Source: a virus
Taxonomy: Duplodnaviria > Heunggongvirae > Uroviricota > Caudoviricetes
IMG/VR virus record: IMGVR_UViG_3300028800_000057
DNA: 64,000 nt
Direction: 5' to 3' (one strand)
Each line of letters starts with the position of its first letter. Within the stretch, counting starts at the first letter, position 1. Below the pieces are notes generated by a model. That model made no database searches. It saw nothing but the letters and a program-made list of their open reading frames with translations, and had not been told where the DNA came from. This document shows, piece by piece, positions 5,727 to 21,015 of the stretch. Both the position numbers and the translations under genes were made by a program.

Positions 5727-6497
5727 ATGAGTTCTCTAGTTTCTCGGGTGGTTGCTAGGTATAAAGCTGCGGTTGATGTCCGAAGACTCAATCTAGCTTG
5801 GTATACATTCAAGGAGTGGAATCTATCGGGGCCTCTCTCTTTATTAGATACCATGAGTAAAGCGTTCGACTCGAAACCCTTGAGTGATAAGACCAGAAAA
5901 CTCCTGGACATTGATTCTAGGTTGAAGAAGTTAGACAAGGAATACACTCATCGATTCAAGTCTTTAATAGATGATCCCTCTGACTTACCCAACCTACAAA
6001 AAGAACTCAAGCGAGAACTTAAGCTAATCGGGCTTCTTCTTCAACGATATGACTTCAATGCTGACGATATCTACAGTGATATTGATGATTCTCCTATAGC
6101 CAAAGTACTTGTTGATTTTGATCGGAACGATCTGATAGATCGTATTGGGTCATTCCCTGAGGATGCTCCTACAGAGGAGGATCTAAGTTGGTTGAAGTCA
6201 TTAGACTTCTCTAAACAACAGAGGGCTCTGGATCAGGTTCATAGCTACATCCCAGACTTCTCACCTTCTGACCATGATTACGGTAGTTTCGCTTTCTTCA
6301 AGGAGTGGATACACAACCTTCCTACTAACTATGATGAGTGGGAGGATGCACTTCCATCTAACTTTGAAGAGATTAGCACTGATGTAGTAGAGACCAAGGT
6401 TGGTCAGGGTGTGACTAAGTACTTTGATGGCAACCAGTCGATCTTCGAGTACATCCAAGGTGACCTAGAGTCTCTTTTAGATGATCTCGAGATTTAG
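5727..6497 (+). CDS. hypothetical acidic protein with N-terminal RVAARY-type leader
   Basis: 256-aa ORF. The N-terminus MSSLVSRVVARYKAA matches a leader shared by at least five other ORFs. Confidence 0.5.
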   Translation: MSSLVSRVVARYKAAVDVRRLNLAWYTFKEWNLSGPLSLLDTMSKAFDSKPLSDKTRKLLDIDSRLKKLDKEYTHRFKSLIDDPSDLPNLQKELKRELKLIGLLLQRYDFNADDIYSDIDDSPIAKVLVDFDRNDLIDRIGSFPEDAPTEEDLSWLKSLDFSKQQRALDQVHSYIPDFSPSDHDYGSFAFFKEWIHNLPTNYDEWEDALPSNFEEISTDVVETKVGQGVTKYFDGNQSIFEYIQGDLESLLDDLEI

Positions 6498-6510
6498 ATC
6501 ACAATTTTAC

Positions 6511-6598
6511 GGAAGGTGCCAGCTAACCGGATGGCAACCAGCTTCGAAAACTGGTGGGTACCTCGTAAGGGGTAAGGGTTCGATTCCTACACTTTCCG
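6511..6598 (+). tRNA. tRNA-Ser(CGA)-like, type II
   Basis: Acceptor GGAAGGT/ACTTTCC, anticodon loop TTCGAAA, long variable arm, T-loop TTCGATT. Stems are imperfect. Confidence 0.45.
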
Positions 6599-6771
6599 CT
6601 AAGCCCGAATCATCAGGGATCATCTTACCTCTGTTACCTGACTTGGGCTGAAGCTGCTGAACTCTTGTAAGATGAGGGAAGCGGAAGCTGAATGGCAGTC
6701 GGTCTTGAGGGTCCGATCCAGCAAGATTTCTGAGGGTGCGCACCCAATAATGAGATCCTGCCAAACTTTAT

Positions 6772-6856
6772 GGAAGGTAAATCTGGATCTGGTCTGGAGC
6801 CCGCCTGCTGAGCGGTGCGTAGGTAACACTATGGCGTTCGAATCGTCTGCCTTCCG
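6772..6856 (+). tRNA. tRNA-Ser(GCT), type II
   Basis: Acceptor GGAAGGT/GCCTTCC, anticodon loop CTGCTGA, long variable arm, T-loop TTCGAAT. Confidence 0.55.
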
Positions 6857-6872
6857 CTGGTGTAACTTTAGT

Positions 6873-7433
6873 ATGCGAGTCTGCTCTTGTGGTAAAGAAG
6901 AAACCCCAGATGAGCCTTTTTACGATAAGAGTGCTGTCTGTAGGAAGTGCTACTACTTGAAGAAGGAGGGTACTGCTAAGATCTATCGAGATAACCAACG
7001 AATTAGGGATATGTATAATAGACTTGATCGGGATCGAAGAGCTAATCCTAGATTCAGATCCGGGTTCATACTCAAGGACTCTAAACAGTCAGATAGGAGG
7101 GCAGGGCGGTCAAATGACTTGACCAAAGAGATTATCGAGAAGTTAATCTCACAAGAGTGTCAGTATTGTGGTGAGACCTCACTTAAAATGACTTTGGATC
7201 GTAGAGGTAACTCACTTGGGCATCTTGAGTCCAATGTAATACCGTGTTGTATACGATGTAACTACATAAGAAGAGATATGCCTTATGAGGCTTGGATTCT
7301 ATTGAGTCCATTTCTTCGATTAGTTCGAGAGTCTGGTTTATTTGGTTCTTGGACTTGTGGTGTGGGTAATCGGACAAATGGAAGGGATGGGGTGAGTGGT
7401 CGCCCGCCAGCTTGGAAACCTGGATGCCCGTAA
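6873..7433 (+). CDS. HNH homing endonuclease
   Basis: CQYCGE...LDRRGNSLGHLESNVIPCCIRCN motif. The ORF track starts at 6672, but that part overlaps tRNA-Ser(GCT), so the start is taken at the ATG after the tRNA. The 3' end overlaps tRNA-Ser(GGA). Confidence 0.55.
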   Translation: MRVCSCGKEETPDEPFYDKSAVCRKCYYLKKEGTAKIYRDNQRIRDMYNRLDRDRRANPRFRSGFILKDSKQSDRRAGRSNDLTKEIIEKLISQECQYCGETSLKMTLDRRGNSLGHLESNVIPCCIRCNYIRRDMPYEAWILLSPFLRLVRESGLFGSWTCGVGNRTNGRDGVSGRPPAWKPGCP

Positions 7434-7462
7434 GGACCGCAGTTCGACTCTGCTCTCTTCCG
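7380..7462 (+). tRNA. tRNA-Ser(GGA), type II
   Basis: Acceptor GGAAGGG/CTCTTCC, anticodon loop TTGGAAA, long variable arm, T-arm CGCAGTTCGACTCTGCT. Confidence 0.55.
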
Positions 7463-7500
7463 CTACTTGATCAAGTTTCACTTATAGGGTACTTCTTGGT

Positions 7501-8370
7501 GTGGAAGATCCTATTGTCCAGAGAGTGGCCCGTCGTTTTCAAGCGGCTGCTCGTAAGAGACCTCTGGATCCAGAGAAGATGACAAAGCTCTTACTCTGGG
7601 TTCGAAAGAATCCAAAGCTAGGGAAAACACTCAAGGAGCTATGGCCAGTCTTCGACTATCTTGGTTGGACAATCGAGCCCCTCAGGGGAGGAACCAAGTT
7701 CACTGCCCCAAACGGAGCTGTATTCGAGACTGGAGTCTTCTTCGATTACATCGGGAGGGAGTACCTATTCATCATTCGAAACGCTGAGGGTGAGACCCTA
7801 GAGAAGTGGTTGACGAAGAATCACTTCCAGGATCAAGTACTCGAAGCTCTGCAGATGGAGTCCTACGAAGCTGAGACCGAGAGGAAGAAGCAAGAGCGTG
7901 AGGAGAGGGCTAGGGTTGGTAAGGCAACCTGCCCATGCTGCTTCAGGGCCTTCATGCTGCTGCCCAGGGCTAAGAAGGGTGACAGGTCGATGCCCGGGGT
8001 CGTCCTCCACGGGTACAAGCGTCCTGGCATAGGCTACCTCCAAGGAGAGTGCTTCGGCAACGGGTGGCCCCCCTTCGAGCTTAGCTCAGAGGGTACCAAG
8101 GAGTACCTCACGCACCTAGGTCCGATACTGAAGGGGCTGACTGAGTACTTGGGTCGACTCGAACGGGACGAAGAAGACACTCTGGTCATCGGTTTCATGA
8201 AGGCATATTACCGAAATGATACGCCTCCTTACGATTGGGATCGTTACCGAGAGATGGCAATCAGCCATCAGAAGGCTCAGGTTCGGGAAGTTACTCAGGT
8301 CATGGGGCTGGTTAGGAGCAAGTTGGGCTCTTGGGAGCCACACCCCGAGCGTTTAGAAATCAAGCTCTAA
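7501..8370 (+). CDS. hypothetical protein with RVAR(R)F leader
   Basis: 289-aa ORF with N-terminus MEDPIVQRVARRFQAA. Confidence 0.5.
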   Translation: MEDPIVQRVARRFQAAARKRPLDPEKMTKLLLWVRKNPKLGKTLKELWPVFDYLGWTIEPLRGGTKFTAPNGAVFETGVFFDYIGREYLFIIRNAEGETLEKWLTKNHFQDQVLEALQMESYEAETERKKQEREERARVGKATCPCCFRAFMLLPRAKKGDRSMPGVVLHGYKRPGIGYLQGECFGNGWPPFELSSEGTKEYLTHLGPILKGLTEYLGRLERDEEDTLVIGFMKAYYRNDTPPYDWDRYREMAISHQKAQVREVTQVMGLVRSKLGSWEPHPERLEIKL

Positions 8371-8690
8371 TAGTCGTCTTATGCTATTGTCCTGATGTGG
8401 AAGACCTGACTATCATCTCCAGAGTGTCCGCTCGTTTCGCTTCATCCACCCTTGCCAAAGGGGACCTTCTTAGGGTTTGGGTGAAGCGTGGTGACTGGTG
8501 GACAGAGATGCGTCGTGGAGTCCAGCTTGAAGTGAAAGCAGTCAATGGTGATGATATCACAGTCAACCACTACGGCTGGGCCACTTCCGGGTGGACAATG
8601 AAGTTACCCCCAGGCCAAGACTTGTCAGGAAAGTTCAAGTTAGAGGGTGATGCAAGGTTTCGTAGATCTCTTGTAGTTGATAAGGTCTGA
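8331..8690 (+). CDS. hypothetical protein
   Basis: 119-aa ORF. Confidence 0.35.
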   Translation: MGATPRAFRNQALIVVLCYCPDVEDLTIISRVSARFASSTLAKGDLLRVWVKRGDWWTEMRRGVQLEVKAVNGDDITVNHYGWATSGWTMKLPPGQDLSGKFKLEGDARFRRSLVVDKV

Positions 8691-8882
8691 GTGATGATAC
8701 CCTTGAGAGTTACTTGGTTCACGACCAAGCCGCTGACGGCGGCAAGGAGGAACCATGGCAAACTTCAAGAGACGGCATCGGCGCCGAGGTGGTATCAAGG
8801 GTTGTTGCGGAATGTGTATGCTCCGTAAGACTGATGGTCGACGGAACCACAGACGATTGACCCAACAAGAACTGGCAAGCAC

Positions 8883-9242
8883 TTGCTCCGAACGGGAGCA
8901 AGTGCAAGACCTTGGTGTAGCACGAGGATGGTGTACGAAGACATCCGCGAGTTGATGACCTCTATCATGGTGTACGTGAAAGAGAACCCGGGATGTGTCG
9001 TCGTCTCCGATGACACCCCCAAAGACTTACTCTTTGGGTTCACCTTGAGGGACATCAATCCATTCTTGCTAACTCGGCCCACCTGGAGAATCAGAACGAG
9101 GGACTTCAGGTCCTCAGTCGCTAAGATTCCGGACAAGCCTCGCGACATCCTGATCGATTACTTCTACTCTGGGTACAAGCGCCAGGTTCTGGCTAACCTA
9201 CTCACCAATAACGGGTCACCAGAGATGAGTATCTCGGTCTAA
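8883..9242 (+). CDS. hypothetical protein
   Basis: 119-aa ORF. Confidence 0.35.
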   Translation: MLRTGASARPWCSTRMVYEDIRELMTSIMVYVKENPGCVVVSDDTPKDLLFGFTLRDINPFLLTRPTWRIRTRDFRSSVAKIPDKPRDILIDYFYSGYKRQVLANLLTNNGSPEMSISV

Positions 9243-9277
9243 GGGTCGAAGTCCGGTAGCTTTAGCTTAGTTTTCAT

Positions 9278-9350
9278 GCCCCAGTAGCTCAGTGGATAGA
9301 GTGTCGGTTTCCTAAACCGAATGCCGCTGGTTCGAGTCCAGCCTGGGGCA
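9278..9350 (+). tRNA. tRNA-Arg(CCT)
   Basis: GCTCAGTGGATAGAG D-arm, anticodon arm TCGGT-TTCCTAA-ACCGA, T-arm GCTGGTTCGAGTCCAGC. Confidence 0.75.
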
Positions 9351-9351
9351 C

Positions 9352-9481
9352 CGCGGAGAATGCAGTAAGGACTACAATTAATCAGCGTGTCACGGGTTCG
9401 AGTCCCGTCGTCCGCTTCGGCGGATGTAGCTCAGTTGGCAGAGCAGCCGAACACAATGTCTTTGCGATTCTTGTCTCCGCA
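9352..9481 (+). ncRNA. tRNA-derived structured element: conserved motif, then T-arm plus 3' acceptor strand, then a 5' acceptor strand plus D-arm
   Basis: AGAATGCAGTAAGGACTACAAT motif, then T-arm ACGGGTTCGAGTCCCGT plus CGTCCGC, a 5-nt spacer, then GCGGATGTAGCTCAGTTGGCAGAGC, ending in TCTCCGC. That end is the exact complement of GCGGAGA at 9352-9358. Confidence 0.3.
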
Positions 9482-9487
9482 AACTAT

Positions 9488-9561
9488 TGCCCTCTGATGC
9501 TGCTTGGGTAGGCAGCCGGCTTGTCACGCCGGTGTTGACGGGTTCAAATCCCGTAGGGGGC
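9488..9561 (+). tRNA. tRNA-Asp(GTC)
   Basis: Acceptor GCCCTCT/AGGGGGC, anticodon arm CCGGC-TTGTCAC-GCCGG, T-arm ACGGGTTCAAATCCCGT, CCA follows. Confidence 0.7.
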
Positions 9562-9589
9562 GCCAATCTTTTAATGCTAGAACCATGGT

Positions 9590-10144
9590 ATGATCCTTCG
9601 TCTGCGTATTTTTGACTTCGATGGGACGCTCTTCAATAGTCCCCAACCACCGAATTGGTGGAAGGACCCCGCTGGGTGGTTCTACAGTATCGAGTCAATG
9701 ACCCCGCCGTGTCTCGCAGAGACACCCTCCGATGACTGGTGGATTGAATCAACCGTCAGTGACGTCAGAGACTCTCTGAGTGATAGGTCCAATTACGTGG
9801 TCCTACTGACAGGTCGCCAGTGGACGGTCTTCGCTGATAGGGTTCATGAGCTTCTGGAGCAGAAGAGTCTGAAGTTCGATGAGATTCACTTGTCGGACCG
9901 AGTTGATACTGTGGACTTCAAGGTCGAGTGTATCAAGAGGTTGCTTTCAGAGCACCCCACGGTTGAGGTCGTCGAGATGTGGGATGACATGTTAGATCGA
10001 ATCCCACCCTGTAGGGCTGCAGTCGATGGCGCCGGTGTCAAGTTCAAGCTCCACAAAGTGGACATGAAAGAGCGCAAGTCTCCTTGCACTGAAGATGAGT
10101 TTCTTACCAAGAAAGTAGTCTCACGCTACGCTTCCTTGGTGTAA
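9590..10144 (+). CDS. HAD-superfamily phosphatase
   Basis: Motif I FDFDGTLF, motif II LLTGR and a C-terminal DD motif (MWDDMLD). Confidence 0.55.
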   Translation: MILRLRIFDFDGTLFNSPQPPNWWKDPAGWFYSIESMTPPCLAETPSDDWWIESTVSDVRDSLSDRSNYVVLLTGRQWTVFADRVHELLEQKSLKFDEIHLSDRVDTVDFKVECIKRLLSEHPTVEVVEMWDDMLDRIPPCRAAVDGAGVKFKLHKVDMKERKSPCTEDEFLTKKVVSRYASLV

Positions 10145-10148
10145 ATAT

Positions 10149-10220
10149 AGGGGTATCTTTCAATTGGTAGGAAAGCGGTCTCCAAAACCGCCAATCGTGG
10201 TTCGAGTCCACGTGCCTCTG
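10149..10220 (+). tRNA. tRNA-Trp(CCA)
   Basis: Anticodon arm GCGGT-CTCCAAA-ACCGC, T-arm CGTGGTTCGAGTCCACG. The acceptor is paired using G-U pairs. Confidence 0.65.
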
Positions 10221-10230
10221 CAAAGTATCT

Positions 10231-10422
10231 ATGAAACATCCTTGTGCTTGGTGCGGACAACGACCTGTTGTCTATCGAGGTACTGAGTACTGTAGCTATC
10301 AGTGCTGGGTCGACTCCTTGCACGCGGTTCAAGGTGAGCCCGTTCGAGAAGACCCACCACCCCCTAAGCTGAATGGTGTAGTTCAACTTGACTTGTTTGA
10401 AAAGCTCATGCATACTCTATGA
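10231..10422 (+). CDS. small Cys-containing hypothetical protein
   Basis: 63-aa ORF with CAWCG...CSYQC. Confidence 0.3.
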   Translation: MKHPCAWCGQRPVVYRGTEYCSYQCWVDSLHAVQGEPVREDPPPPKLNGVVQLDLFEKLMHTL

Positions 10423-10428
10423 GCCTAT

Positions 10429-10499
10429 TGGGATATCGTCTAATGGTAGGGCAGCGGACTCTGAATCCGTCTATCCAGGTTCAAGTCCTGGTATCCCAA
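10429..10499 (+). tRNA. tRNA-Gln(CTG)
   Basis: Acceptor TGGGATA/TATCCCA, anticodon loop CTCTGAA, T-arm CCAGGTTCAAGTCCTGG. Confidence 0.7.
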
Positions 10500-10526
10500 C
10501 TAACTTACCTATGAGCTACTGACTAG

Positions 10527-11012
10527 GTGGACCGCCTAATCAGAAGAATTGTTGCTCGGTGGAACTTCAAGGTCGCTATGTCGGGGTACCGCCCCGATAT
10601 TCCACAGTGGGTCTTTGATCGGTACGCGACCAGAGTATCTTTTCAGGGTAACCCGCAGATTGATCGTGAGCTCCTCAACGAGGGTAGAGAATCAATTAGT
10701 GCTCTTCTTCCTAGCTTTCTTTCAGTACTTAGGAGGTCACTAGGGGACCGGTACTCGATGAACTCGAGTCAAACCTCGACTGACATGTTCTACTTCTTTG
10801 CTCCGCCCCAGCCAATTGACTCTATTGCGATGCACCTAGGGAGTCATGGGGGCAAGCTCAGGTTGGATTTGAGTTACTTGCCACGTGATCTTAAGGGTGG
10901 GATCAACCTATCCAAGATTGTGGAACTCATGGAGATCATCGAAGACCCTGAGTTGGTTGGGCTTCACATGATGCGCATGATTAAGAAGCTCATGGCTAAG
11001 ATTCGTAAGTAA
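10527..11012 (+). CDS. hypothetical protein with RIVARW leader
   Basis: 161-aa ORF with N-terminus MDRLIRRIVARW. Confidence 0.45.
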   Translation: MDRLIRRIVARWNFKVAMSGYRPDIPQWVFDRYATRVSFQGNPQIDRELLNEGRESISALLPSFLSVLRRSLGDRYSMNSSQTSTDMFYFFAPPQPIDSIAMHLGSHGGKLRLDLSYLPRDLKGGINLSKIVELMEIIEDPELVGLHMMRMIKKLMAKIRK

Positions 11013-11014
11013 AT

Positions 11015-11087
<73 letters not shown>

Positions 11088-11091
11088 CTAA

Positions 11092-11337
11092 GGGCGGGAT
11101 AGCCTAAACTGGATAGGCACCATAAAAAACGGAATGTGTATGGGCTGTGATGGCCCCAACGCAAGACAGGAGGGAGGGGAGCTAGGTAGGGCGTCGCTCG
11201 GACCTAGACAACTCCGGATGGTCTCGGGCAAGGTTGCGGATGCACCGAATGGCAGTGAGATCCACGGTCGCTAGGGAAGCGCGTTTCCTAAGAGCCCTTT
11301 GTGTTGAGTGCGGGTTCGATTCCCGTCCCGTCCACCA
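11092..11337 (+). ncRNA. tRNA-like element with a roughly 170-nt internal insertion (intron-containing tRNA or other structured RNA)
   Basis: 5' GGGCGGG plus a D-arm-like segment at 11092-11118. 3' T-arm GCGGGTTCGATTCCCGT plus CCCGTCC-A-CCA at 11305-11340. The two ends are fully complementary. Confidence 0.3.
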
Positions 11338-11515
11338 ATCTTCTTCTTGTGGTTTAGCTGAGGTTACTATGGAAGAGATCTTGAATCAGCCGAAGGCTGA
11401 ACCCAAGAAGGAACCAAACGTTCAAGTTTGTGGTTATTGCAATGGTTGGTGCCATCAAGGTGAGTATCTTCATCATGACCTTGATTGTCAGCGTCCGGAT
11501 CAGAACAATTGATAT

Positions 11516-11587
11516 GGGGCCATCGTCCAATCGGGAGGACACTAGCTTTGCAAGCTAGGAACGTCGGTTCGACTCCGTCTGGTTCCA
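11516..11587 (+). tRNA. tRNA-Ala(TGC)
   Basis: Anticodon arm CTAGC-TTTGCAA-GCTAG, T-loop TTCGACT, CCA follows. Confidence 0.7.
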
Positions 11588-14034: not shown

Positions 14035-14157
14035 TAGTTCAAACCTGAAATCCCCCCGCTACTTATGGGGGATCGCCTTATGGAGGCATCTTTCGGCTTC
14101 TCTTGTCTCCCTCAGTCTAATGAACTTATCCAGTGGGTAAGTGTGTTTGATGACCTA

Positions 14158-14982
14158 ATGACCCTTCGTGTTGCGGCTCGGTACGTTCGAGCACGAGCGA
14201 AGATATCACTTAGTACTGGGGAGGATGACGAGACCCAACGAAAGGGTAAGATCCCTCCCAGGTGGAAAGAGTGGTTGGACCTTACACAAGAAGGGGGTAA
14301 GCGTAAGGTTCCTAACCCAAGTGCAGATCCTCAGTCTCGTGAGAGAAACTCGGAGGTTTCCTTCAGTACAGCTCTAAAGAACCCTAGCTTTTATGGCAAG
14401 GCACTCAAGGAGTACTACAACTGGGTAGGGAAGCAGGACGATAAGGGTGGTACTTCACCAAAGAAGCCAACGCCTTCTGAAGAGTCCACTTCAGATGCTA
14501 AGCCCAAAGAAGAAGACTCAAAACCAAAGTCCAAGGGTGATGATTCGAAAGATACTGCTCCGTCCAATCCTTTAGAGTTGGACGACAAGCGACTAGACGC
14601 TATCATCGAGGAGAATAAAGAGCACTTTGACCAGATCACGAAAGAGATGACTGAGTCGGTTAAGGGGTTTAAGTCTAGTCACATGAAGAAGCGCTACCCC
14701 GGGGATCGGTACCCAAGCCTCTTCAAGAAGGCTTTTGATCGACTCACTCCTCAAGAGCAAGCACTCTGGGCTGGTGGGGATAAGCTAGGCAAGCACTTCC
14801 AAGACTACATGTCTAAGAAGGATGCTGAGGGTCAACGAGTAGGTCGAGGTGCTGTTGCTGGTTGGAGGATTGCAGGTGATTTCACTGAATCTGAATCAGC
14901 TCAGAACTTAATTGGTATGGTTGAAGCTTGGGGCATCAAGGGTTGCCAGCAGTTCAACCTGAACTTGACTAAAGTTACTTGA
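14158..14982 (+). CDS. hypothetical Lys/Asp-rich protein with RVAARY leader
   Basis: The ORF track starts at 14065. The leader consensus points to the internal start MTLRVAARYVRA. Confidence 0.45.
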   Translation: MTLRVAARYVRARAKISLSTGEDDETQRKGKIPPRWKEWLDLTQEGGKRKVPNPSADPQSRERNSEVSFSTALKNPSFYGKALKEYYNWVGKQDDKGGTSPKKPTPSEESTSDAKPKEEDSKPKSKGDDSKDTAPSNPLELDDKRLDAIIEENKEHFDQITKEMTESVKGFKSSHMKKRYPGDRYPSLFKKAFDRLTPQEQALWAGGDKLGKHFQDYMSKKDAEGQRVGRGAVAGWRIAGDFTESESAQNLIGMVEAWGIKGCQQFNLNLTKVT

Positions 14983-15177
14983 CTCCGCTCGTCTCATAGA
15001 TAATCATCCTATCAGATCGGATGTACATGAAGATGAAAGTGGTTCGAGTCTCGGCCACTGAGTTCGAATTGGAAGACGGTAGGGTATTTCCCCACGTCAC
15101 CCCACTCGAACCGGTTCCGACCCCCGAAGAGTTTCAAGTACATTACGACCTTTGGTCAGATCGGTTGAAGCGAAAGG

Positions 15178-15801
15178 ATGTCCCATGGACTTGTCTCGCT
15201 CAAAAAAGCGGCTGAAATCCTTGGTTGCGGAACCTCCACACTTCGAACTTGGGATAAGAACAAGAGCCTCGTAGCCGTTCGAACTCCTGGTGGTCAGCGC
15301 CGATACCGCACTGAAGACCTCGACCGCTTCCAGGGAATCATCAAGAAGACCTCCAAGAAGTCGGAGTCCGTGGCAGTCTACGCTCGTGTTTCTAGTCACG
15401 AGCAGAAGGCTAAAGGAGACCTCGACCGCCAGAAGGGAAGGCTTCTAGAGCATTGCGTCAAGCAGAGCTACTCGGTGACCCACGTCATGGAGGAGGTTGG
15501 ATCTGGGATGACGGACACTCGGCCGAAGATGCTACGGCTTCTTGAGCTGGCAACGAGGGGCGAGATTGGGCGAGTGGTTATCGAGCACAAAGATCGGTTA
15601 GCTCGGTTCAATTTCAACATATTCCAGAAGTTCTTCGAGAGTCACGGTGTACAGGTTGAATGGCTGGAAAACGTGCTTCCGAAGTCTTACGAGGCGGAAC
15701 TCGTTGAGGATATGGTCAGCCTTATGTCCAGCTTCTCAGCCAAAGTATATGGGAAACGCTCTGCTGAGAACCGCCGAAAGAAGAAGGCTGAAGCGGCATG
15801 A
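15178..15801 (+). CDS. tnpA: IS607-family TnpA (serine recombinase with N-terminal MerR-like HTH)
   Basis: An N-terminal HTH (AAEILGCGTSTLRTW) followed by a resolvase catalytic core (YARVSSHEQ...DRQ...R). Sits immediately upstream of, and overlapping, a TnpB gene. Confidence 0.7.
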   Translation: MSHGLVSLKKAAEILGCGTSTLRTWDKNKSLVAVRTPGGQRRYRTEDLDRFQGIIKKTSKKSESVAVYARVSSHEQKAKGDLDRQKGRLLEHCVKQSYSVTHVMEEVGSGMTDTRPKMLRLLELATRGEIGRVVIEHKDRLARFNFNIFQKFFESHGVQVEWLENVLPKSYEAELVEDMVSLMSSFSAKVYGKRSAENRRKKKAEAA

Positions 15802-17225
15802 AGAAGTGTAGGTTCTTCATGTTGCACTCCGAGTGCAATCCAGGGAAGGTTAAAGCTATCGAGGCCCTCCATGCTGAGTATGTGCTTTACGTTCGGATAT
15901 GCGTCCAGACGATGCTCTCCGCTCGCCGACTAAGCTTGCCCCGCTCGGAGAAGCAAGAGTTCTTTCCCCGAGCTGAGAACCTAACTTCACAGATTGAGAA
16001 GAACGCCCGTGATCATGCCATCCAGATCGTAAGTACCTGGGCCAAGGGGATCTATGCCAGGAAGCTCAAGACTTTCATCAGGTTATCCTTCAATGAAGGG
16101 ACTTTCGATGAGGACTTTCGGAAGCAACTCTGTACGGTCGGCAAGTATTTGGTTCACGATCCGAGTAAGACCGTGACCCAAGAGGCTATCAATCTGTATT
16201 GGGCTTGGCTCTCTGACCCAGAAGTAGTTGGAAACTTCCCAAGTGTGTCTAGTCGAATCCCAATGAGGATGTCTGAAAACACCTGCTCATTGGAAGATCC
16301 AGAAGAGGCTGTTCACGCTTATCTTTGGCTCAAGATCTCGACCTTAGTTTCTCGTAAGCTTGCCTGGCTCCCGCTGGTTGGAAACCCGTATGTCAAGAAG
16401 TCCTCTGATGTGGGTAAGGGGATTCATGCTAGAAAAGACCGAAAAGGCCGGTGGCGATTCGAAGCTGTTGACACCAAAGAATGGCTGATCTGTGAGGCGG
16501 AGCCAGACCTTCCAATGATCGGAGTAGATGTCGGGCTAAACGTAGTAGCGGCTACTTCGAGCGGACACACGTTTGGGGCAGACTTGAAACCCAAGTTTAA
16601 TCGGCTCTACAACAAGGTCAGGGCGGTTCGAGCGAACCGCCAAAGGCAGGGACTCAAAGAAAACAGCCCTAGACTCGACAGGCTTGAGTCCAAGCTCTCC
16701 GGCTTGACTAAGAGCATCACTGGACGGGTCTCCAATGAGCTTCTTCGAGCTTATCCAGAATCAGTCTTCGTCCTTGAGGACTTGGATCTTCGGGGTTGTC
16801 GTGGTCAAAAACGCTTTTGCTACAGAGCCTTAGCTCACGCTCTTGAGAGCAAAGCTCCGACCGATAAGGTGAATCCCGCTTATTCTAGTCAAACATGCCC
16901 TTCTTGTGGGCATGTCTCCAGGCTCAATCGGTCTGGAACCAGTTTCATCTGCCGCCAATGCGGCAGGATTTCACATGCTGATGTGGTAGGAGGGATCAAT
17001 CTGCTCAGACGTTCTGAGAGCAAACAGATTGGTCTCAATGATCACCCATCGGAAGTGAAGAGAATGCTTGTGAGGCTATACTGGTCTAGGAGGAATCCTA
17101 ACCAGGACTGTCCACAAGACTTCTTGAATAAATACGCGCCATTACCGTATGGCCGGAGGCTTACTACCAAGGGACGTTCTCGAAAGAGAAGCATTGGCAT
17201 AGCTTTTAATCAGGTAGTTGCTTGA
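15798..17225 (+). CDS. tnpB: TnpB (RuvC-like RNA-guided nuclease, IS605/IS607 family)
   Basis: RuvC-I (IGVDVGLN), RuvC-II (VFVLEDLD), zinc finger CPSCGH...CRQCG and RuvC-III (HADVVGGINL). Confidence 0.8.
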   Translation: MKKCRFFMLHSECNPGKVKAIEALHAEYVLYVRICVQTMLSARRLSLPRSEKQEFFPRAENLTSQIEKNARDHAIQIVSTWAKGIYARKLKTFIRLSFNEGTFDEDFRKQLCTVGKYLVHDPSKTVTQEAINLYWAWLSDPEVVGNFPSVSSRIPMRMSENTCSLEDPEEAVHAYLWLKISTLVSRKLAWLPLVGNPYVKKSSDVGKGIHARKDRKGRWRFEAVDTKEWLICEAEPDLPMIGVDVGLNVVAATSSGHTFGADLKPKFNRLYNKVRAVRANRQRQGLKENSPRLDRLESKLSGLTKSITGRVSNELLRAYPESVFVLEDLDLRGCRGQKRFCYRALAHALESKAPTDKVNPAYSSQTCPSCGHVSRLNRSGTSFICRQCGRISHADVVGGINLLRRSESKQIGLNDHPSEVKRMLVRLYWSRRNPNQDCPQDFLNKYAPLPYGRRLTTKGRSRKRSIGIAFNQVVA

Positions 17226-17379
17226 ACCCACGTAAGTTTAAGCAACTTCTTGAGTACGGTTGGACTGATCCAGGCTCAGGATTCTCAGGACAACCCTAAT
17301 ATTGTCAAGATTAAACTGGATGATATCAGTAGAATCATGTTCATCCCAGCTAACAAGTCTAGTAGTTTAGCTGATAGGG

Positions 17380-17964
17380 TTGCGACTCGTTGGTGTATTC
17401 AGCAGGGTGGCAATCGGTAAGGGTCCAATTAATCTCCCCGTAACTCCTGATATGCCCCTAAGTGAGCTTCAAGAGAAGTTGAAGGCTCATGTACGAGGCC
17501 CCGGCGCAGTCTGTCCAGTATGCCGTCAACTCGTGAGGATGGTTGAAAAAGAGCTGAGTGCCCCGATGGCGTACGTCCTCATTCTGATGTACCGTCACTT
17601 CCAGACGGCCTCTGACTGGCTCGACATGAACCAGTACATCTCAAACATGGTGGCGATTGGGTCCGAGGTGAAGGGTGGGGAGTGGTCGAAGATGAAGTAC
17701 TGGCAACTCATCGTCGAGCGCCCGCCGGAGAAGAAGTCAATCGTGAACCCCAAGCCTCCAGTCAAGACTCAGGGGATGTACAAGATGACAGAGCTTGGCG
17801 CAAGGTTCGTTCTCGGCAAGATCAAGATCCCTCGAAGTGTCTGGCTCTACAATGGCAAGGTCATCGAGGTACATAAGAAGTCCGTAAGCATTCAAGAATG
17901 CTTAGGAAAAGACTACAACTACGAAGCACTCATGGCTGGGAACCTAGGAAGCTTCGCAGTCTGA
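17380..17964 (+). CDS. hypothetical protein
   Basis: 194-aa ORF downstream of tnpB. Confidence 0.45.
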   Translation: MRLVGVFSRVAIGKGPINLPVTPDMPLSELQEKLKAHVRGPGAVCPVCRQLVRMVEKELSAPMAYVLILMYRHFQTASDWLDMNQYISNMVAIGSEVKGGEWSKMKYWQLIVERPPEKKSIVNPKPPVKTQGMYKMTELGARFVLGKIKIPRSVWLYNGKVIEVHKKSVSIQECLGKDYNYEALMAGNLGSFAV

Positions 17965-17969
17965 TTTAT

Positions 17970-18042
17970 GCCCCCATAGCTCAGTGGATAGAGCAAAGGT
18001 TTTCTAAACCTGAGGTCGAAAGTTCAAGTCTTTCTGGGGGTA
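17970..18042 (+). tRNA. tRNA-Arg(TCT)
   Basis: GCTCAGTGGATAGAGC D-arm, anticodon loop TTTCTAA, T-arm GAAAGTTCAAGTCTTTC, CCA follows. Confidence 0.7.
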
Positions 18043-18047
18043 CCAAT

Positions 18048-18120
18048 GTCCGCGCAGCTCGATTGGAGGAGCAACAGCTTGCGAAGCTGGAGGTTGGAGG
18101 TTCGACCCCTCTCGCGGACG
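18048..18120 (+). tRNA. tRNA-Arg(GCG)
   Basis: Acceptor GTCCGCG/CGCGGAC perfect, anticodon loop TTGCGAA, T-arm GGAGGTTCGACCCCTCT, CCA follows. Confidence 0.65.
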
Positions 18121-18125
18121 CCAAT

Positions 18126-18199
18126 GATCTCGTAGCATAACGGACTTGTGCAGCGGCCTCCGAAGCCGACGACTGTGGGTTCGAATCCCACCGGGATCA
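18126..18199 (+). tRNA. tRNA-Arg(CCG)
   Basis: Anticodon loop CTCCGAA, T-arm GTGGGTTCGAATCCCAC, CCA follows. The D-arm is weak. Confidence 0.5.
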
Positions 18200-18221
18200 C
18201 CAACTACGGTGTATTAGGGCC

Positions 18222-18557
18222 ATGGCTGTAATCACAATCAATGGCAAACGCATAGAGGTTGATGGCTCAGGTACTGTCTCAATCAACAATGGGGTTATCA
18301 AGGTTGATGGGGTGACCGTCGAGAATGGCCTTCATGGAGTCGTCGAAGTCAAGTGGGAAGGTCCTCTTGCTAACCTTCGATCTGATGCTTCAGTCACTTG
18401 TGGGGACGTCACTGGGAACGTGAGTGCGGGAGGTAGTGTCCATGCTGGTAACATTCAATCTACAGTGACCGCCGGTGGGAGTGTCCACGCTGATGACATC
18501 ATCGGGAACGTTAATGCTGGAGGAAGTGTCAACTGTAGAAGTCAAAGATCTCGTTAG
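18222..18557 (+). CDS. small repeat protein (three copies of G-N-V-x-A-G-G-S-V-H-A)
   Basis: 111-aa ORF with internal tandem repeats. Confidence 0.4.
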   Translation: MAVITINGKRIEVDGSGTVSINNGVIKVDGVTVENGLHGVVEVKWEGPLANLRSDASVTCGDVTGNVSAGGSVHAGNIQSTVTAGGSVHADDIIGNVNAGGSVNCRSQRSR

Positions 18558-18561
18558 TTAC

Positions 18562-18635
18562 ACCCCCATAGCTCAATTGGATAGAGCAGAGGTTTTCGAA
18601 GCCTAAGGTTGGAGATTCGAGTTCTCCTGGGGGTA
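18562..18635 (+). tRNA. tRNA-Arg(TCG)
   Basis: GCTCAATTGGATAGAGC D-arm, anticodon loop TTTCGAA, T-arm GGAGATTCGAGTTCTCC, CCA follows. Confidence 0.6.
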
Positions 18636-18640
18636 CCAAT

Positions 18641-18713
18641 GCTGATGTAGCTCAATCGGTAGAGCGGCGCTTTCATAAGGCGAAGGTTGCGGGTTCGAGT
18701 CCCGCTTTCAGCA
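18641..18713 (+). tRNA. tRNA-Met(CAT) (or Ile2)
   Basis: GCTCAATCGGTAGAGC D-arm, anticodon loop TTCATAA, T-arm GCGGGTTCGAGTCCCGC, CCA follows. Confidence 0.65.
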
Positions 18714-18743
18714 CCAAAGTTCTCACTGGGTGTAGTACCTAGG

Positions 18744-18923
18744 ATGGTGAGAATACTCCGAAGGTCGAAGGACGAAGTAGTGGTCATGGACAACGAAGAC
18801 ATAGTTGGTTCTGTAGTCAACCAAGTTGGATGTGTTCAGGTTGCAACTATTGACGGTTCTTTCGTGGTTGTCGACGATGTAGTCAGAGCGGCCAAGCTCC
18901 TCGATGAGCCTTGGCCTGAGTAA
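18744..18923 (+). CDS. small hypothetical protein
   Basis: The ORF track 18687..18923 begins inside a tRNA. The internal ATG at 18744 lies beyond the tRNA. Confidence 0.3.
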   Translation: MVRILRRSKDEVVVMDNEDIVGSVVNQVGCVQVATIDGSFVVVDDVVRAAKLLDEPWPE

Positions 18924-18930
18924 CTTTCAT

Positions 18931-19005
18931 GCCCCTGTAGCTCAATTGGTAGAGCGCTGGTCCTACAAACCAGAGGTTTTGTACGTTCAAGTCGTATCGG
19001 GGGTA
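18931..19005 (+). tRNA. tRNA-Val(TAC) with C32-C33 anticodon loop
   Basis: GCTCAATTGGTAGAGC D-arm, anticodon arm CTGGT-CCTACAA-ACCAG, T-loop TTCAAGT. Confidence 0.5.
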
Positions 19006-19010
19006 CTAAC

Positions 19011-19095
19011 GCACGAGTGGCGGAACTAGGCAGACGCTCCGGACTTAGAATCCGGCGGGGTAATTCCCATGGAGGTTCAATTCCTCTCTCGTGCA
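19011..19095 (+). tRNA. tRNA-Leu(TAG), type II
   Basis: Acceptor GCACGAG/CTCGTGC perfect, anticodon arm CCGGA-CTTAGAA-TCCGG, long variable arm, T-arm GGAGGTTCAATTCCTCT, CCA follows. Confidence 0.75.
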
Positions 19096-19354
19096 CCAAT
19101 CTCCAATGAAAGAAGGTTTTATGCTCAAGTTCAAGATACGATGGCTTAGTTCAAGACTCGTTATGGGTCGTGGCCTAAGCTGGGTGGTATAGCTGAATCC
19201 AATAGCTCAGTTCTGAGAGGCTCAGCTGCATTCATCGCCTCATTCAGGCAAATGCTAGCGATCTCTGCTCGGAATTGAGCCGGTTTTCTTGGGTTCACCA
19301 AAACTAAGGGCATAGAACTCTCACCTTCAATACGCCGTTTTGTCTTAGATCTTC

Positions 19355-19585
19355 CTACTCACCTGTTGGTAAATAGGTGACCTTCCTAGAAGGTTCATTC
19401 ACGATCGAGGCCTTCTCAATACAGTACCTTGTTCTGAGGTAGAAGTCACCGTCTCTAGCAATCGTCTCCGCAAGATCTGGGGTGGCTCCTCGAACAGTGC
19501 ACTTTCCAGTGTACGTTCGGTTGAACTCGCAATTTATCGAACAACACCTTGTATCAAACGGGATAATTACTCTTAGAGCTGGCAT
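19355..19585 (-). CDS. small Cys-rich hypothetical protein
   Basis: 76-aa ORF on the minus strand between the tRNA block and an AT-rich region. Confidence 0.3.
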   Translation of the reverse strand: MPALRVIIPFDTRCCSINCEFNRTYTGKCTVRGATPDLAETIARDGDFYLRTRYCIEKASIVNEPSRKVTYLPTGE

Positions 19586-19737
19586 GCCATTACTCTACTC
19601 AATAAGATGATAAAACTCAATGACATTTAAGCAACCTTCGATTAATCAAGTCTTCATTCATTGATACATGAGGCTTACAGACCTCAACGTAGGCATGGCT
19701 CGCTCTTAGTTATCTTCTTGTTGGGTTTTCTTCGTAG

Positions 19738-21015
19738 ATGCGCGAAGACGTCTTAACTCTCCGAGTAGCTGCTCGCTTCATTCAAGCAGACATCTTGACC
19801 AAGCAATGGCTCATGGGGGTCAAGAGGGGCTGGACTGCCGTCATCAAGTCCCCGCATGAGATGGATGACAAGCACAAGGCTCTCATTGAGTTCCTGAGGA
19901 ACCTAGGGGATCAGGTACTCTTCCAAAGGCATGGCATGAACATTGTGTTCACCGGTTCTAGGGAGCGGATCAAGTTCGAGAACCTTTTGGCAAAGACCAA
20001 AGGTCAGGTTTTCGAGGTGTACACAGAATACGAAAAAATAGCCAGTAATTACAGAGAGGTAAGTGAGAAGCGCGAGAAGTTCCTGGATGAGATCGAAGAG
20101 CGAACTGGGGACAACATCCGAAAGCTTCACGGATCTGATGAGTTCATTCGCAAATACCCTGAATACGAGCCATATCACGCAAAGTGGACTAAGGCCATGG
20201 ATGCTGTTGATCAGTATCGGTGGCATCCAGAAGTGGTGTGGGCTCCGGCTACCAGAGTCTTCGATGCTTTGATGAAGCACCTCTACGCTGATGCCAAGGC
20301 TACCGCTGAGTACAAGAAGGAACACGGGGAAGATCCAATCGATGACTTCTACTCTACGGTTCCTAAGGAATTTGATCTCAACAGCGCCAAGGTTGTTGTC
20401 ATTGATGACTCAGTGAGTCGGAATGACGTTCGTGATTACATCAAGTACATCAACCGAGCACAACAGATGTTGAAAAACAATGGTTTCGGAAAGTTGTGGT
20501 ACGGGGTGATGTTTGTTGAGGCCAAGAATCACAAGAAAACCCAAGAAGAGATTGAGCTTGCTCAGAAGTGGGGTTACAGTAGTTCTGGGGATGCTGGGGA
20601 GTATAACCACGATCTGGACCAAGTCTATATTAGGAATAAGCCAGAGGGTTTCGTTACCCGTATCGTGATCCATGAGCTTGGGCACCGATACTGGTTCAAG
20701 TTCATGACCCCAGCGAATCGAGCTCGATTCAATGCCTTAGTTCAAACCAAGACTACAGACAGATTCAGGGATTACCCGCAGGGACCTACTGATGAAGAGG
20801 GTAATCCTAAGCCGGTTGCACCATTGGGTGAGTACGCTAGCTCCAACATTGAAGAGGCTTTCGCGGAAGTGTTTGAGGGTTATGTGTCTGGAGGGGGTCT
20901 CACTCGAGACCAACTTGAGTCTTTCCGATCAGTTCTATCCTCTGAGCGGAACCAAGAATATCCTTTGGTTTCTAGTAGTGGACACTATCAGATCCGTCGG
21001 GTAGTAGATCTTTAG
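19738..21015 (+). CDS. putative zinc metallopeptidase (HExxH) with RVAARF leader
   Basis: VIHELGHRYW HExxH motif. N-terminus MREDVLTLRVAARFIQA. Confidence 0.5.
   Translation: MREDVLTLRVAARFIQADILTKQWLMGVKRGWTAVIKSPHEMDDKHKALIEFLRNLGDQVLFQRHGMNIVFTGSRERIKFENLLAKTKGQVFEVYTEYEKIASNYREVSEKREKFLDEIEERTGDNIRKLHGSDEFIRKYPEYEPYHAKWTKAMDAVDQYRWHPEVVWAPATRVFDALMKHLYADAKATAEYKKEHGEDPIDDFYSTVPKEFDLNSAKVVVIDDSVSRNDVRDYIKYINRAQQMLKNNGFGKLWYGVMFVEAKNHKKTQEEIELAQKWGYSSSGDAGEYNHDLDQVYIRNKPEGFVTRIVIHELGHRYWFKFMTPANRARFNALVQTKTTDRFRDYPQGPTDEEGNPKPVAPLGEYASSNIEEAFAEVFEGYVSGGGLTRDQLESFRSVLSSERNQEYPLVSSSGHYQIRRVVDL

Follow-up and report, generated by a model that had tools for sequence, protein, structure and literature searches.

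In phage T4, a short N-terminal peptide, the CTS, sends the internal proteins IPI-III and Alt into the prohead for injection. This capsid-targeting peptide, which Alt bears at its N-terminus, occurs at no other position, and the prohead protease cuts it off at an (L/I)-x-E site. The cargo-loading peptides of encapsulins are mostly found at the C-terminus, in some cases at the N-terminus, and attach to the interior of an HK97-fold shell; in form they are extended and rich in Gly (…GSL…), and the gene for the cargo adjoins that for the shell. Bacterial microcompartment encapsulation peptides are N- or C-terminal helices of ~18 residues that are joined by a linker to diverse enzymes and function independently of position. 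Peroxisomal PTS2 and mitochondrial presequences, which belong to eukaryotic organelle systems, are near-terminal helical signals defined by sequence and served by a soluble receptor. T4 Alt is an ADP-ribosyltransferase that enters the host with the viral DNA (PMC5512222). The polyvalent proteins of phages and conjugative elements, whose architecture has a zincin peptidase hub, are predicted to be packaged and injected and to act in early counter-defence and host take-over (Iyer et al. 2017, PMC5512222). In nucleus-forming jumbo phages, import proceeds without terminal signals, according to a 2026 review (PMC13282480).

Here we describe a helical peptide of ~16 residues that is common to the ends of dozens of otherwise unrelated enzymes in a clade of huge uncultured phages (contigs up to ~530 kb). 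The motif core is …L-x-x-R-V-A-x-R-F/Y/W-x-x-A… and the consensus is [D/E]-x-[L/I]-[small]-x-R-V-[A/V]-x-R-[F/Y/W]-x-x-A. This peptide, hereafter the tag, looks like a sequence-defined address or docking label. It has no counterpart in the databases and literature searched, it matches neither solved-structure sequences nor Pfam families, and a term search of PMC5512222 did not find a shared linear tag.

Nine copies of the tag in the window

The window, the whole 64-kb stretch of DNA that was analyzed, contains nine copies of the tag: seven are N-terminal, one is C-terminal (in a HAD phosphatase), and the ninth lies in an orphan ORF of 27 codons. The original prediction listed six sites, all present as described, and overlooked three (8421, 10112, and 17376); its observation is confirmed, and is larger in extent.

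5727..5771, + strand: N-terminal tag MSSLVSRVVARYKAA of gene 5727-6497 (256 aa, without known domain); core RVVARY at 5745-5762, 28.1 bits
7501..7548, + strand: N-terminal tag MEDPIVQRVARRFQAA of gene 7501-8370 (GTG start, 289 aa); core at 7522-7539, 24.8 bits
8397..8447, + strand: N-terminal tag (M)EDLTIISRVSARFASS of small gene 8397-8690 (GTG start, 97 aa); motif copy MEDLTIISRVSARFASS at 8421, core at 8421-8438, 23.1 bits; newly listed
10091..10144, + strand: C-terminal tag ...EDEFLTKKVVSRYASLV, followed by the stop, of HAD phosphatase gene 9590-10144 (end of protein ...KKVVSRYASLV); core at 10112-10129, 21.7 bits; newly listed
10527..10571, + strand: N-terminal tag (M)DRLIRRIVARWNFKV of gene 10527-11012 (GTG start, 161 aa, without known domain); copy MDRLIRRIVARWNF, core at 10545-10562, 23.3 bits
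13188..13262, + strand: N-terminal tag region MTRELIAFQDALIADSVATRFVEAS of gene 13188-13823 (211 aa); core SVATRF, within ...ADSVATRFVEAS, at 13233-13250, 20.0 bits; motif starts at residue 16
14143..14193, + strand: N-terminal tag (V)FDDLMTLRVAARYVRA of gene 14143/14158-14982; core at 14167-14184, 21.6 bits; originally given as MTLRVAARYVRA from 14158
17337..17420, + strand: orphan 27-codon ORF MFIPANKSSSLADRVATRWCIQQGGNR, followed by the stop, with a tag; core at 17376-17393, 19.3 bits
19738..19791, + strand: N-terminal tag MREDVLTLRVAARFIQAD of zincin gene 19738-21015 (425 aa, HELGH...EAFAEVF); copy MREDVLTLRVAARFIQA, core at 19762-19779, 26.2 bits

The regular expression [RKQS][VI][VALS].R[YFW], drawn up after inspecting the data, matches the + strand between 5.7 and 19.8 kb nine times, versus ~1.0 match in shuffles (n = 300, maximum of four). 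A position matrix derived from regex-selected terminal matches, the window's own sites among them, scores these nine sites at 19.3-28.1 bits, and all other positions of the 64 kb, in all six frames, stay below 12 bits. The replication and recombination genes at 27-64 kb of the window all lack the tag, an observation that bears on its destination.

Several of these copies recur in related loci. The tag of gene 5727-6497 is kept in its orthologs in L016 and L017, that of the HAD phosphatase in L015:13176 and L017:5231, and that of the zincin at 19738 in orthologs down to ~30% identity. Gene 8397-8690 has an ortholog (L017:3141), as does gene 10527-11012 (in L015 and L017). The Pfam domain HAD_SAK_1 covers residues 21-135 of the phosphatase, and P0034 has this HAD-then-tag unit in a fusion, upstream of a zincin. 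Gene 7501-8370 belongs to a Zn-ribbon family (phrog_28271) in which 31 of 150 representatives have an N-terminal tag of at least 15 bits, and several of the 29 members inspected below this threshold have degenerate copies. The N-terminus of gene 13188-13823 is similar to that of an unrelated J-domain protein, L015:14115-15320 (RAFQDALLTFKVAARF). The gene placed at 14158 more likely starts at the GTG at 14143 (VFDDLMTLRVAARY), because the ortholog alignment begins there; it is related, in truncated form, to a protein of 396 aa that has a DRAT-like ADP-ribosyltransferase domain. The orphan ORF overlaps, in a different frame, the untagged gene 17407-17964, whose orthologs in L015, L016, and L017 are also untagged, and is probably a remnant. 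Finally, the listed genes were said to lie mostly just downstream of a tRNA, which is true for five of the six. Most related loci with tagged genes lack any tRNA, so this adjacency is mainly a trait of the window's sub-lineage and the association between tag and tRNA is incidental.

Conservation in related huge-phage loci

We surveyed 42 related huge-phage loci (~0.9 Mb) together with the window's own ORFs. The motif has 59 N-terminal, 18 C-terminal, and 35 internal matches, compared with 2, 2, and 13, respectively, for a reversed-motif control in the same survey. The N-terminal excess over this control is ~30-fold, and nearly all of it comes from outside the window. Across this set, the first Arg of N-terminal copies is mostly at residue 5-9, and the aromatic residue of C-terminal copies is 3-5 residues ahead of the stop. 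Positions outside the regex used for selection are conserved as well, with an i/i+4 spacing: L/I at -3 (58% of copies) and Ala at +8. A small residue is also conserved at -2. The tag is retained in orthologs at 26-57% identity.

Outside the motif, the best E-value in an all-against-all BLASTP of the tagged proteins is 0.014, in a low-identity stretch, and the tagged window proteins have different Pfam domains or none assigned. The claim that the sequences diverge past the motif is thus borne out, and the BLASTP result rules out diverged paralogs, the alternative that the original prediction had named as refuting it. Conservation at the protein level, also claimed, is supported by the identities among copies at the first, second, and third codon positions (0.69, 0.72, and 0.36, respectively), and by the longest nucleotide run common to copies, which is 8. 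A short motif and a regex defined post hoc would suit a peptide with no common function that arose by chance, from diverged paralogs, as a DNA-level repeat, or as a recombination linker at gene boundaries. This is virtually eliminated by the nine matches where ~1 is expected, the reversed control, the conservation beyond the regex, the dissimilar carriers, and the near-random third codon position; the matrix scores, shuffle and reversed controls, BLASTP, and codon-position identities refute this reading.

The tag was originally viewed as an N-terminal leader, a description that is too narrow: copies are also found at the C-terminus, at both ends, in tandem, and between fusion domains. Within the zincin family (n = 104), the tag is N-terminal in 56 proteins, C-terminal in 26, at both ends in 9, and internal in 12. 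Two full-length orthologs (31% identity, E 1e-66) have it at opposite ends, N-terminal in L027:10925 and C-terminal in L053:4993. Tandem tags occur in L020, P0160, and P0167, three genes in a row have end tags in L059, and in fusion proteins the tag is found at domain junctions.

A helix predicted to be detached from its carrier

In AlphaFold2 (AF2) models of two proteins, the tag is helical with a pLDDT of <50-58, beside domains that are mostly >90. For the zincin at 19738, the helix spans residues 3-15 (pLDDT <50) and the remainder is mostly >90 (mean 86.4). A low-pLDDT helix beside confident domains suggests that the tag is not packed on its own domain, and these models depict it as a short helix detached from the carrier's folded domain. 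In a zincin tagged at both ends (N-terminal tag pLDDT 44-54), AF2 shows no pairing between the two tags, nor with the zincin domain. The tag helix has a hydrophobic moment no higher than that of shuffles, so the term "amphipathic" refers here solely to the conservation pattern and the AF2 secondary structure.

A short N-terminal helix that is basic and hydrophobic, with adjacent Arg-Arg in some copies, could be a membrane-binding or secretion signal (Sec, Tat, or a generic amphipathic membrane helix). We consider this extremely unlikely, given that a hydrophobic core is absent (12-residue Kyte-Doolittle mean ≤1.28 in the first 40 residues of 7/7 N-tagged window proteins), the hydrophobic moment is unremarkable, C-terminal and internal copies exist, the carriers are nucleic-acid- and protein-modifying enzymes, and fixed residues are conserved, unlike in membrane helices.

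The original prediction proposed a targeting or processing signal, with the leader removed by the prohead protease. The first part holds, as this is a shared, selected peptide on unrelated proteins that acts like a targeting or interaction tag. Processing is without sequence support, because no conserved cleavage motif was found after the tag, the only extra conserved positions being -3, -2, and +8. A different kind of removal would be expected of a degron, a terminal peptide that delivers early proteins to a protease or adaptor at a given time. The location at either terminus is compatible with this, and several carriers resemble early host-takeover functions (ADP-ribosyltransferases and SAM lyases), their timing being our inference. 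However, the motif also occurs in tandem and between the domains of long fusions, ~12 residues are strictly conserved over most of the helix surface, beyond known short degrons, and no protease or adaptor is linked; a degron is therefore very unlikely.

Carrier enzymes and their fusions

The carriers comprise zincin peptidases, Topo IB, CCA/poly(A) nucleotidyltransferase, HAD/PNK-type phosphatase, an ADP-ribosyltransferase relative, J-domain proteins, and a ParB-like domain recognized by sequence motif only; LF-like zincin peptidases, ART, Pol-beta-type NTase, and GNAT are among the carriers and fusion partners. Zincins are the most conserved tagged family and the hub of the fusions, and some have weak matches to anthrax lethal factor. 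Each such domain is encoded as a separate small gene in the window itself. L022 encodes a single 3,098-aa protein made of tag plus NTase, two zincins, and tag plus Topo IB, with two strong and two weak tags, three kinds of Pfam domain, and two HExxH sites; its architecture is that for which Iyer et al. 2017 predict packaging and injection (PMC5512222). Other fusions combine HAD with zincin (P0034), zincin with NTase (P0062 and P0073), and zincin with the 7501-family domain (P0057, P0064, and P0160). The carriers, fusion partners, and neighbours examined include no recognizable virion protein, scaffold, portal, or MuF domain. The conserved untagged neighbours with a Pfam name are a DNA methylase, a dCTP deaminase, and a CxxCxxCC protein, and several others have no Pfam match.

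The prominence of zincins raises the possibility that the tag is a recognition or exosite motif for phage zincin peptidases, which would cut nearby, releasing polyprotein domains and trimming or activating stand-alone proteins. Tags do lie at domain junctions of fusions with one to three zincin domains, the lethal factor matches point the same way, and the processing of polyvalent proteins is a role that Iyer et al. propose for such peptidases (PMC5512222). We regard this as quite unlikely. Single-domain proteins would gain nothing obvious from cleavage 5-9 residues after their start or 3-5 before their stop, yet such terminal tags are kept at ~30% ortholog identity. The i/i+4 conservation and the predicted helix do not resemble an extended P4-P4' pattern, some junctions in big fusions are untagged (e.g., in L022), and AF2 does not model the N-terminal tag as occupying the zincin's cleft.

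Alternatively, the helix may dock enzymes on a common hub in the cytoplasm of the infected cell, without virion packaging. The hub could be a phage protein, a host protein, or another tag, and the "polyvalent" complex would be rebuilt non-covalently. The same domains are fused in some genomes (the P0034, P0062, P0073, P0057, P0064, P0160, and L022 fusions are examples) and separate and tagged in others, fusions still retain tags, proteins tagged at both ends could bridge partners, and no virion link emerges from the carriers and neighbours examined. Against this, no hub candidate emerged, and the Pfam-named conserved untagged neighbours are ordinary enzymes; AF2 gives no sign of tag-tag or tag-zincin pairing within one zincin; and there is no evident need for Topo IB, J-domain, ART, and CCA enzyme, whose substrates are unrelated, in one complex. 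We consider cytoplasmic docking possible but unlikely.

A probable docking helix with a candidate destination in the capsid

Very probably, the helix stands clear of the carrier's fold and is recognized in trans by a single shared receptor. On this view, the phages attach a modular docking helix of ~16 residues to the N-terminus, the C-terminus, both, or inter-domain linkers. By analogy, capsid targeting followed by injection is the most attractive destination, because the carriers have the same domain repertoire as "polyvalent" injected effectors (PMC5512222). The receptor would be part of the head during its assembly (scaffold, portal, or inner capsid surface), given that the carrier domains are those of polyvalent proteins for which injection is predicted in other phages, and the tag would be a per-polypeptide ticket that loads effectors into the capsid for co-injection with DNA, with one or two tags per protein providing avidity. 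We propose the capsid as the destination of co-packaged, co-injected effectors with slightly less than even confidence, and the explanation as a whole, a modular docking helix for co-packaging into the capsid, is likewise tentative. Against the capsid stand the lack of any virion protein, scaffold, portal, or MuF domain among the carriers, fusion partners, and neighbours examined and the lack of a cleavage motif beside the tag. Internal tags in big fusions need no terminal-label model, and J-domain, CCA-adding enzyme, and HAD phosphatase would be equally sensible as cytoplasmic early proteins.

Comparison with known systems

The resemblance to PTS2 and mitochondrial presequences is a functional analogy that implies no homology. 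Like encapsulin cargo-loading peptides, the tag is a short terminal peptide on unrelated enzymes; unlike them, it is a helix with an R-V-A-x-R-aromatic core, its carriers are spread over many genes, and its link to a shell is putative. The likeness to microcompartment encapsulation peptides lies in the terminal helix on diverse enzymes. In those peptides only the amphipathic pattern is conserved, whereas the tag fixes Arg, Val, Arg, and an aromatic and has an unremarkable hydrophobic moment, and no microcompartment shell gene is annotated in the window.

As with the T4 CTS, a short peptide is found on unrelated proteins, an ADP-ribosyltransferase relative among them. The tag, known here from sequence, differs in being also C-terminal, at both ends, in tandem, and between domains, in being followed by no cleavage motif, and in its lack of sequence resemblance. 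Compared with polyvalent proteins, the domains in the window are separate small genes, and no MuF or portal fusion or virion-gene neighbourhood was seen. The two systems share a zincin metallopeptidase hub as well as ART, Pol-beta NTase, GNAT, and ParB-like domains (PMC5512222), and relatives of the window proteins form two- to multi-domain fusions of up to 3,098 aa.

Nine copies of a peptide tag in the tRNA island

All six N-termini that the original prediction had quoted as sharing a leader (5727-19800) are present in the window, and the core regular expression [RKQS][VI][VALS].R[YFW] adds three copies in the same 14 kb, giving nine in total. The tag is a peptide of about 16 residues, for example MREDVLTLRVAARFIQAD, and its positions are numbered from the first Arg (position 0). 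The added copies are:

8421: small gene, likely start GTG 8397
10112: final ten residues of the HAD phosphatase gene 9590-10144 (Pfam HAD_SAK_1)
17376: 27-codon ORF (17337-17420) overlapping the untagged gene 17407-17964 in another frame

For the gene originally placed at 14158, the ortholog alignment starts at GTG 14143. Shuffled versions of the island contain about one match to the regular expression, compared with the nine observed. With a position matrix trained on regex-selected terminal matches from related loci and the window itself, the nine sites score 19.3-28.1 bits, and no other window position reaches 12 bits in any of the six frames.

The carriers were described as otherwise unrelated, and this is borne out: all-against-all BLASTP shows no similarity outside the tag, which rules out diverged paralogs, and their Pfam and PHROG assignments are different or none. 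The DNA also differs between copies, as had been claimed. Across the nine copies, identity is 69% and 72% at codon positions 1 and 2 and 36% at position 3, and the longest nucleotide run common to tag copies is at most 8 nt. What is conserved is therefore the peptide and not the DNA, and the near-random third positions and short common runs rule out a DNA repeat or recombination linker.

The ORF at 17337-17420 carries a full tag and is found in this strain only. It probably represents what is left of the 5' end of a tagged gene that has been lost. A programmed frameshift joining it to 17407-17964 was considered and rejected: the orthologs of that gene in three related huge-phage loci (L015, L016, and L017) are untagged, which makes a remnant the more likely reading. 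Gene 14143-14982 matches a 396-aa ortholog (L016:19510-20697) over residues 1-270 only; the C-terminal, catalytic DRAT-like ADP-ribosyltransferase domain of that ortholog has been lost from the window copy. The truncated gene ends just upstream of an IS607-like unit.

The tag is widespread in related huge phages

We collected 44 huge-phage loci around homologs of the tagged HExxH peptidase gene of the window (zincin, 19738-21015), plus loci around other tagged genes. Counts refer to the 42 loci (about 0.9 Mb) left after removing redundant ones, with the ORFs of the window added. Among ORFs of 100 aa or more, 59 motif copies lie in the first 40 residues, 18 in the last 12 and 35 in other places; reversing the motif, as a control of the same composition, gives 2, 2, and 13 in those zones. 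The N-terminal leader of the original prediction thus stands as far as N-terminal copies are concerned, and its restriction to the N-terminus does not, given the 18 C-terminal and many inter-domain copies. The first Arg is mostly residue 5-9, and in C-terminal copies the aromatic precedes the stop by 3-5 residues.

Positions outside the regular expression are conserved too: L/I at -3 (58% of copies), a small residue at -2 and Ala at +8, with Asp or Glu near -6/-5. The conserved positions show a helix-like i/i+4 spacing (-3, 1, 5 and 0, 4, 8). The proposed cleavage by a prohead protease is not supported, as no cleavage site is found and outside the core only the -3, -2, and +8 residues are conserved.

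Zincin orthologs with 26-57% identity retain the tag as KVVQRY, RVLDRY, RVAHRF or RVARRF. Homologs of an independent second family, that of the tagged Zn-ribbon-family gene 7501-8370, were sought among 1.84 billion representatives, and 31 of the 150 best matches have an N-terminal tag of at least 15 bits. Among 29 members below this threshold that were inspected, several have degenerate copies and several apparently start downstream of the tag site. A bacterial origin was rejected, as just two contigs from metagenome-assembled genomes bear the zincin.

The tag changes ends and lies between domains

Full-length orthologs can be tagged at opposite ends: L027:10925 has an N-terminal copy and L053:4993 a C-terminal one (31% identity, E 1e-66), and the same is seen in other families. 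Among 104 zincin homologs, the tag is N-terminal in 56, C-terminal in 26, at both ends in 9 and internal in 12. Tandem tags occur in locus L020 and in the related proteins P0160 and P0167. Locus L059 has three consecutive tagged genes, encoding Topo IB (both ends), a zincin (both ends) and a 107-aa protein (N-terminus). Topo IB followed by a zincin is a conserved overlapping gene pair (L009:9187-11455 and L059:9174-12319), adjoined by Ku in L059. A second recurrent peptide, YL(K/S)EHP(Q/K)AD(P/K)S(N/K)H(T/K)V, was seen in two tagged proteins (L009:1084-2433 and L015:3532-4044), one tagged N-terminally and the other C-terminally.

In fusion proteins the tag marks domain junctions, as in HAD-tag-zincin (P0034), zincin-tag-zincin (P0029 and P0038), zincin-tag-NTase (P0062) and peptidase-tag-tag-7501-like domain (P0160). 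Another case is a 3,098-aa ORF on a 381-kb phage contig (L022:8237-17530), comprising a tag, a CCA/poly(A) NTase, an LF-like zincin, a second HExxH zincin, a tag, and Topo IB, as well as unassigned regions. Its tags sit immediately before the CCA/poly(A) polymerase domain and immediately before the Topo IB domain. It is a model case of a polyvalent protein, assembled from modules that are encoded separately in the window.

Carriers of the tag

Tagged proteins comprise several HExxH zincin families, Topo IB, CCA/poly(A) nucleotidyltransferase, HAD (PNK-type) phosphatase, J-domain proteins, a DUF3293/SAM-lyase-like protein, the family of 14143-14982, whose full-length members end in the DRAT-like domain, and several small proteins without a match. 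The zincin is found fused to HAD_SAK, PolyA_pol NTase, further zincins, DUF5662, and Topo IB. Fusion partners add GNAT (locus L011 has GNAT, HAD, and peptidase together), DUF5662, a pyrophosphatase-like domain and a ParB-like region, the last by sequence motif only. No recognisable virion protein is among the carriers or their fusion partners.

None of the replication and recombination genes of the window is tagged. Sliding-clamp binding peptides are found on clamp-using enzymes of replication and repair (ligase, flap nuclease, and polymerase). In the 27-64 kb region, the NAD ligase, 5'-3' exonuclease, RecD2, UvsX-like, SbcCD-like, and clamp-loader genes all lack a site of at least 12 bits, and a clamp-binding role was rejected on this basis. 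Conserved untagged neighbours were also considered as candidate receptors and set aside; those named by Pfam are ordinary enzymes, and several have no Pfam match.

Genomic setting

The window is from a very large phage. It encodes 37 tRNA genes (130-19098), a tmRNA (25748-26094) with the tag peptide ANDNAIAAAA, RtcB, a GroEL-type chaperonin, class II ribonucleotide reductase, NAD-dependent ligase, RecD2, a clamp loader and clamp, and UvsX-like and SbcCD-like proteins. Metagenomic contigs of 450-530 kb hold genes identical or related to those of the window. No cultured relative was found by tblastn against GenBank phages, which returned two records, both uncultured; in one of them (LR745208.1) the tag is nearly absent from the 50 kb scanned.

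Dense tRNA clusters beside tagged genes are confined to the sub-lineage of the window (L003-L006 and L015-L019). Elsewhere, three other loci have 3-6 tRNAs and all remaining loci have none. Since most related loci with tagged genes lack tRNAs, the tRNA-island setting is mainly a trait of this sub-lineage, and a functional link between tag and tRNA was rejected.

Several further elements were noted:

249-935: HNH-type endonuclease gene
4406-5125 (-): HNH-type endonuclease gene
6672-7433: HNH-type endonuclease gene
15178-15801: serine recombinase (MerR/HTH and Resolvase) of the IS607-like unit
15798-17225: TnpB/Cas12f-like protein of the IS607-like unit
21166-23631 (-): beta-helix protein of 821 aa adjoining the zincin; may be a fibre or spike
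26192-26755: HNH-type endonuclease gene

The four HNH-type genes, dispersed within the tRNA island and beside it, suggest homing-endonuclease traffic. The IS607-like unit (15178-17225) lies within the tRNA island and is found in contigs identical to that stretch of the window (L003-L005). The 512-kb relatives L001 and L007 lack it in the 10 kb that precede the zincin, a flank that is wholly different there. The stretch 19190-24052, with the zincin and the beta-helix gene, is the only one that is 99.8% identical between the window and these two relatives; all sequence around it differs, indicating strong mosaicism.

Predicted structure of the tag

An AlphaFold2 model of the window zincin, built from a 50-sequence alignment, has mostly pLDDT >90 (mean 86.4), with tag residues 3-15 modelled as a helix at pLDDT <50. 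In P0017, a homolog tagged at both ends, the N-terminal tag has pLDDT 44-54 and the C-terminal helix is moderately confident (67-80). The tag is thus predicted to be helical and not to pack against the domain that it is attached to. Pairing of N- and C-terminal tags within one protein is not predicted, given the low-confidence N-terminal tag of P0017. The hydrophobic moment of the tag is not above that of shuffles, and the matches from a fold search with the zincin were all weak and to gluzincins (IRAP, PPEP-1, and anthrax lethal factor).

Sec and Tat signals have a hydrophobic h-region after a basic n-region, with S-R-R-x-F-L-K in Tat. The tag has no such h-region (maximum 12-residue Kyte-Doolittle mean at most 1.28) and occurs C-terminally, so a Sec/Tat signal peptide was rejected. 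No curated family or solved structure is recognised as containing the tag. A profile of 60 tags (20-column alignment) found nothing significant among solved-structure sequences (best E 0.33, an internal CasPi segment), and four tag peptides searched against Pfam at E<=10 gave a single match, AflR (E 0.2), below its cut-off. A likeness to 'ALRRF' of ribosomal protein S21 was rejected, the register being off by one residue and no Pfam match being found.

A possible sorting code

Because the peptide is selected at the ends of unrelated proteins, switches ends, is sometimes doubled and appears structurally detached, the best explanation is a docking helix that a single partner recognises in trans. 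Two readings rival the capsid destination discussed below: the tag could gather the enzymes on a cytoplasmic hub, or it could be where the zincin peptidases dock to process the fusions. A plain cleavage site is disfavoured by the helical conservation pattern and by the fact that single-domain proteins keep the tag at their very ends.

For a docking helix, capsid loading is the leading destination that we infer, in line with the original prediction and with the T4 peptide. The carrier domains match the polyvalent repertoire, here either fused or encoded as separate tagged genes. Were such effectors packaged, each separate polypeptide would need its own ticket, which fits the tag on nearly every separate gene. 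Together, the polyvalent-like carriers and this reasoning favour the capsid. We consider it possible, if somewhat short of probable, that the tag is a linear sorting code of this clade, by which any polypeptide with the R-V-A-x-R-F/Y/W helix at one end enters the capsid, or a different assembly that the phage builds, and is delivered along with the others. In that case the sequence alone would reveal which effectors are injected, perhaps dozens of enzymes in each genome.

No role has been assigned to most genes of huge phages, which are uncultured; the tag groups many accessory enzymes into one functional set, ties them to the idea of polyvalent injected effectors and offers a direct experimental handle. 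To our knowledge, no general packaging code is known outside T4-like phages. If the capsid is the destination, this would be the first, and it might be used to load large capsids with foreign proteins.

Comparison with known systems

Terminal targeting peptides are a known device, as in the T4 capsid-targeting sequence (carried by Alt and internal proteins), encapsulin and microcompartment peptides, and PTS2; the motif described here has no match in Pfam, solved structures or the literature searched, where we found no description of it. The T4-type sequence, borne by proteins that lie inside the virion, is confined to the extreme N-terminus and is followed by a conserved prohead-protease site, whereas the tag is also C-terminal (18 copies), inter-domain and opposite-ended in orthologs, and has no Glu-type site. 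Encapsulin cargo-loading peptides are, like the tag, short and present at either terminus of unrelated enzymes. However, they are Gly-rich and extended, with the shell gene adjacent, whereas the tag is a helical R-V-A-x-R-aromatic peptide with no capsid-like gene among its annotated neighbours.

According to a 2026 jumbo-phage review (PMC13282480), the one protein-sorting system that it describes, nuclear import in nucleus-forming jumbo phages, uses no terminal signals; term searches of the review found no terminal tag. Against this account, a terminal signal in another huge-phage clade would be notable.

A further parallel is with polyvalent proteins. Iyer et al. 2017 (PMC5512222) describe multi-domain effectors with a zincin peptidase hub, predicted to be packed in the capsid, co-injected with DNA and perhaps processed by the peptidase; term searches of that paper found no shared tag. 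Polyvalent proteins are also characterized by MuF or portal fusions or a neighbourhood of virion genes, whereas no Pfam or PHROG match to a head protein, scaffold, portal or MuF was found among the carriers, fusions, and neighbours examined. The tagged families share with them the association of a zincin hub with disparate enzyme domains. Polyvalent proteins have two to fifteen domains, and the relatives L022 (3,098 aa), P0038, and P0160 are likewise multi-domain, whereas the tagged genes of the window are single-domain. If the tag is a sorting code, it would be a non-covalent equivalent of the polyvalent proteins.
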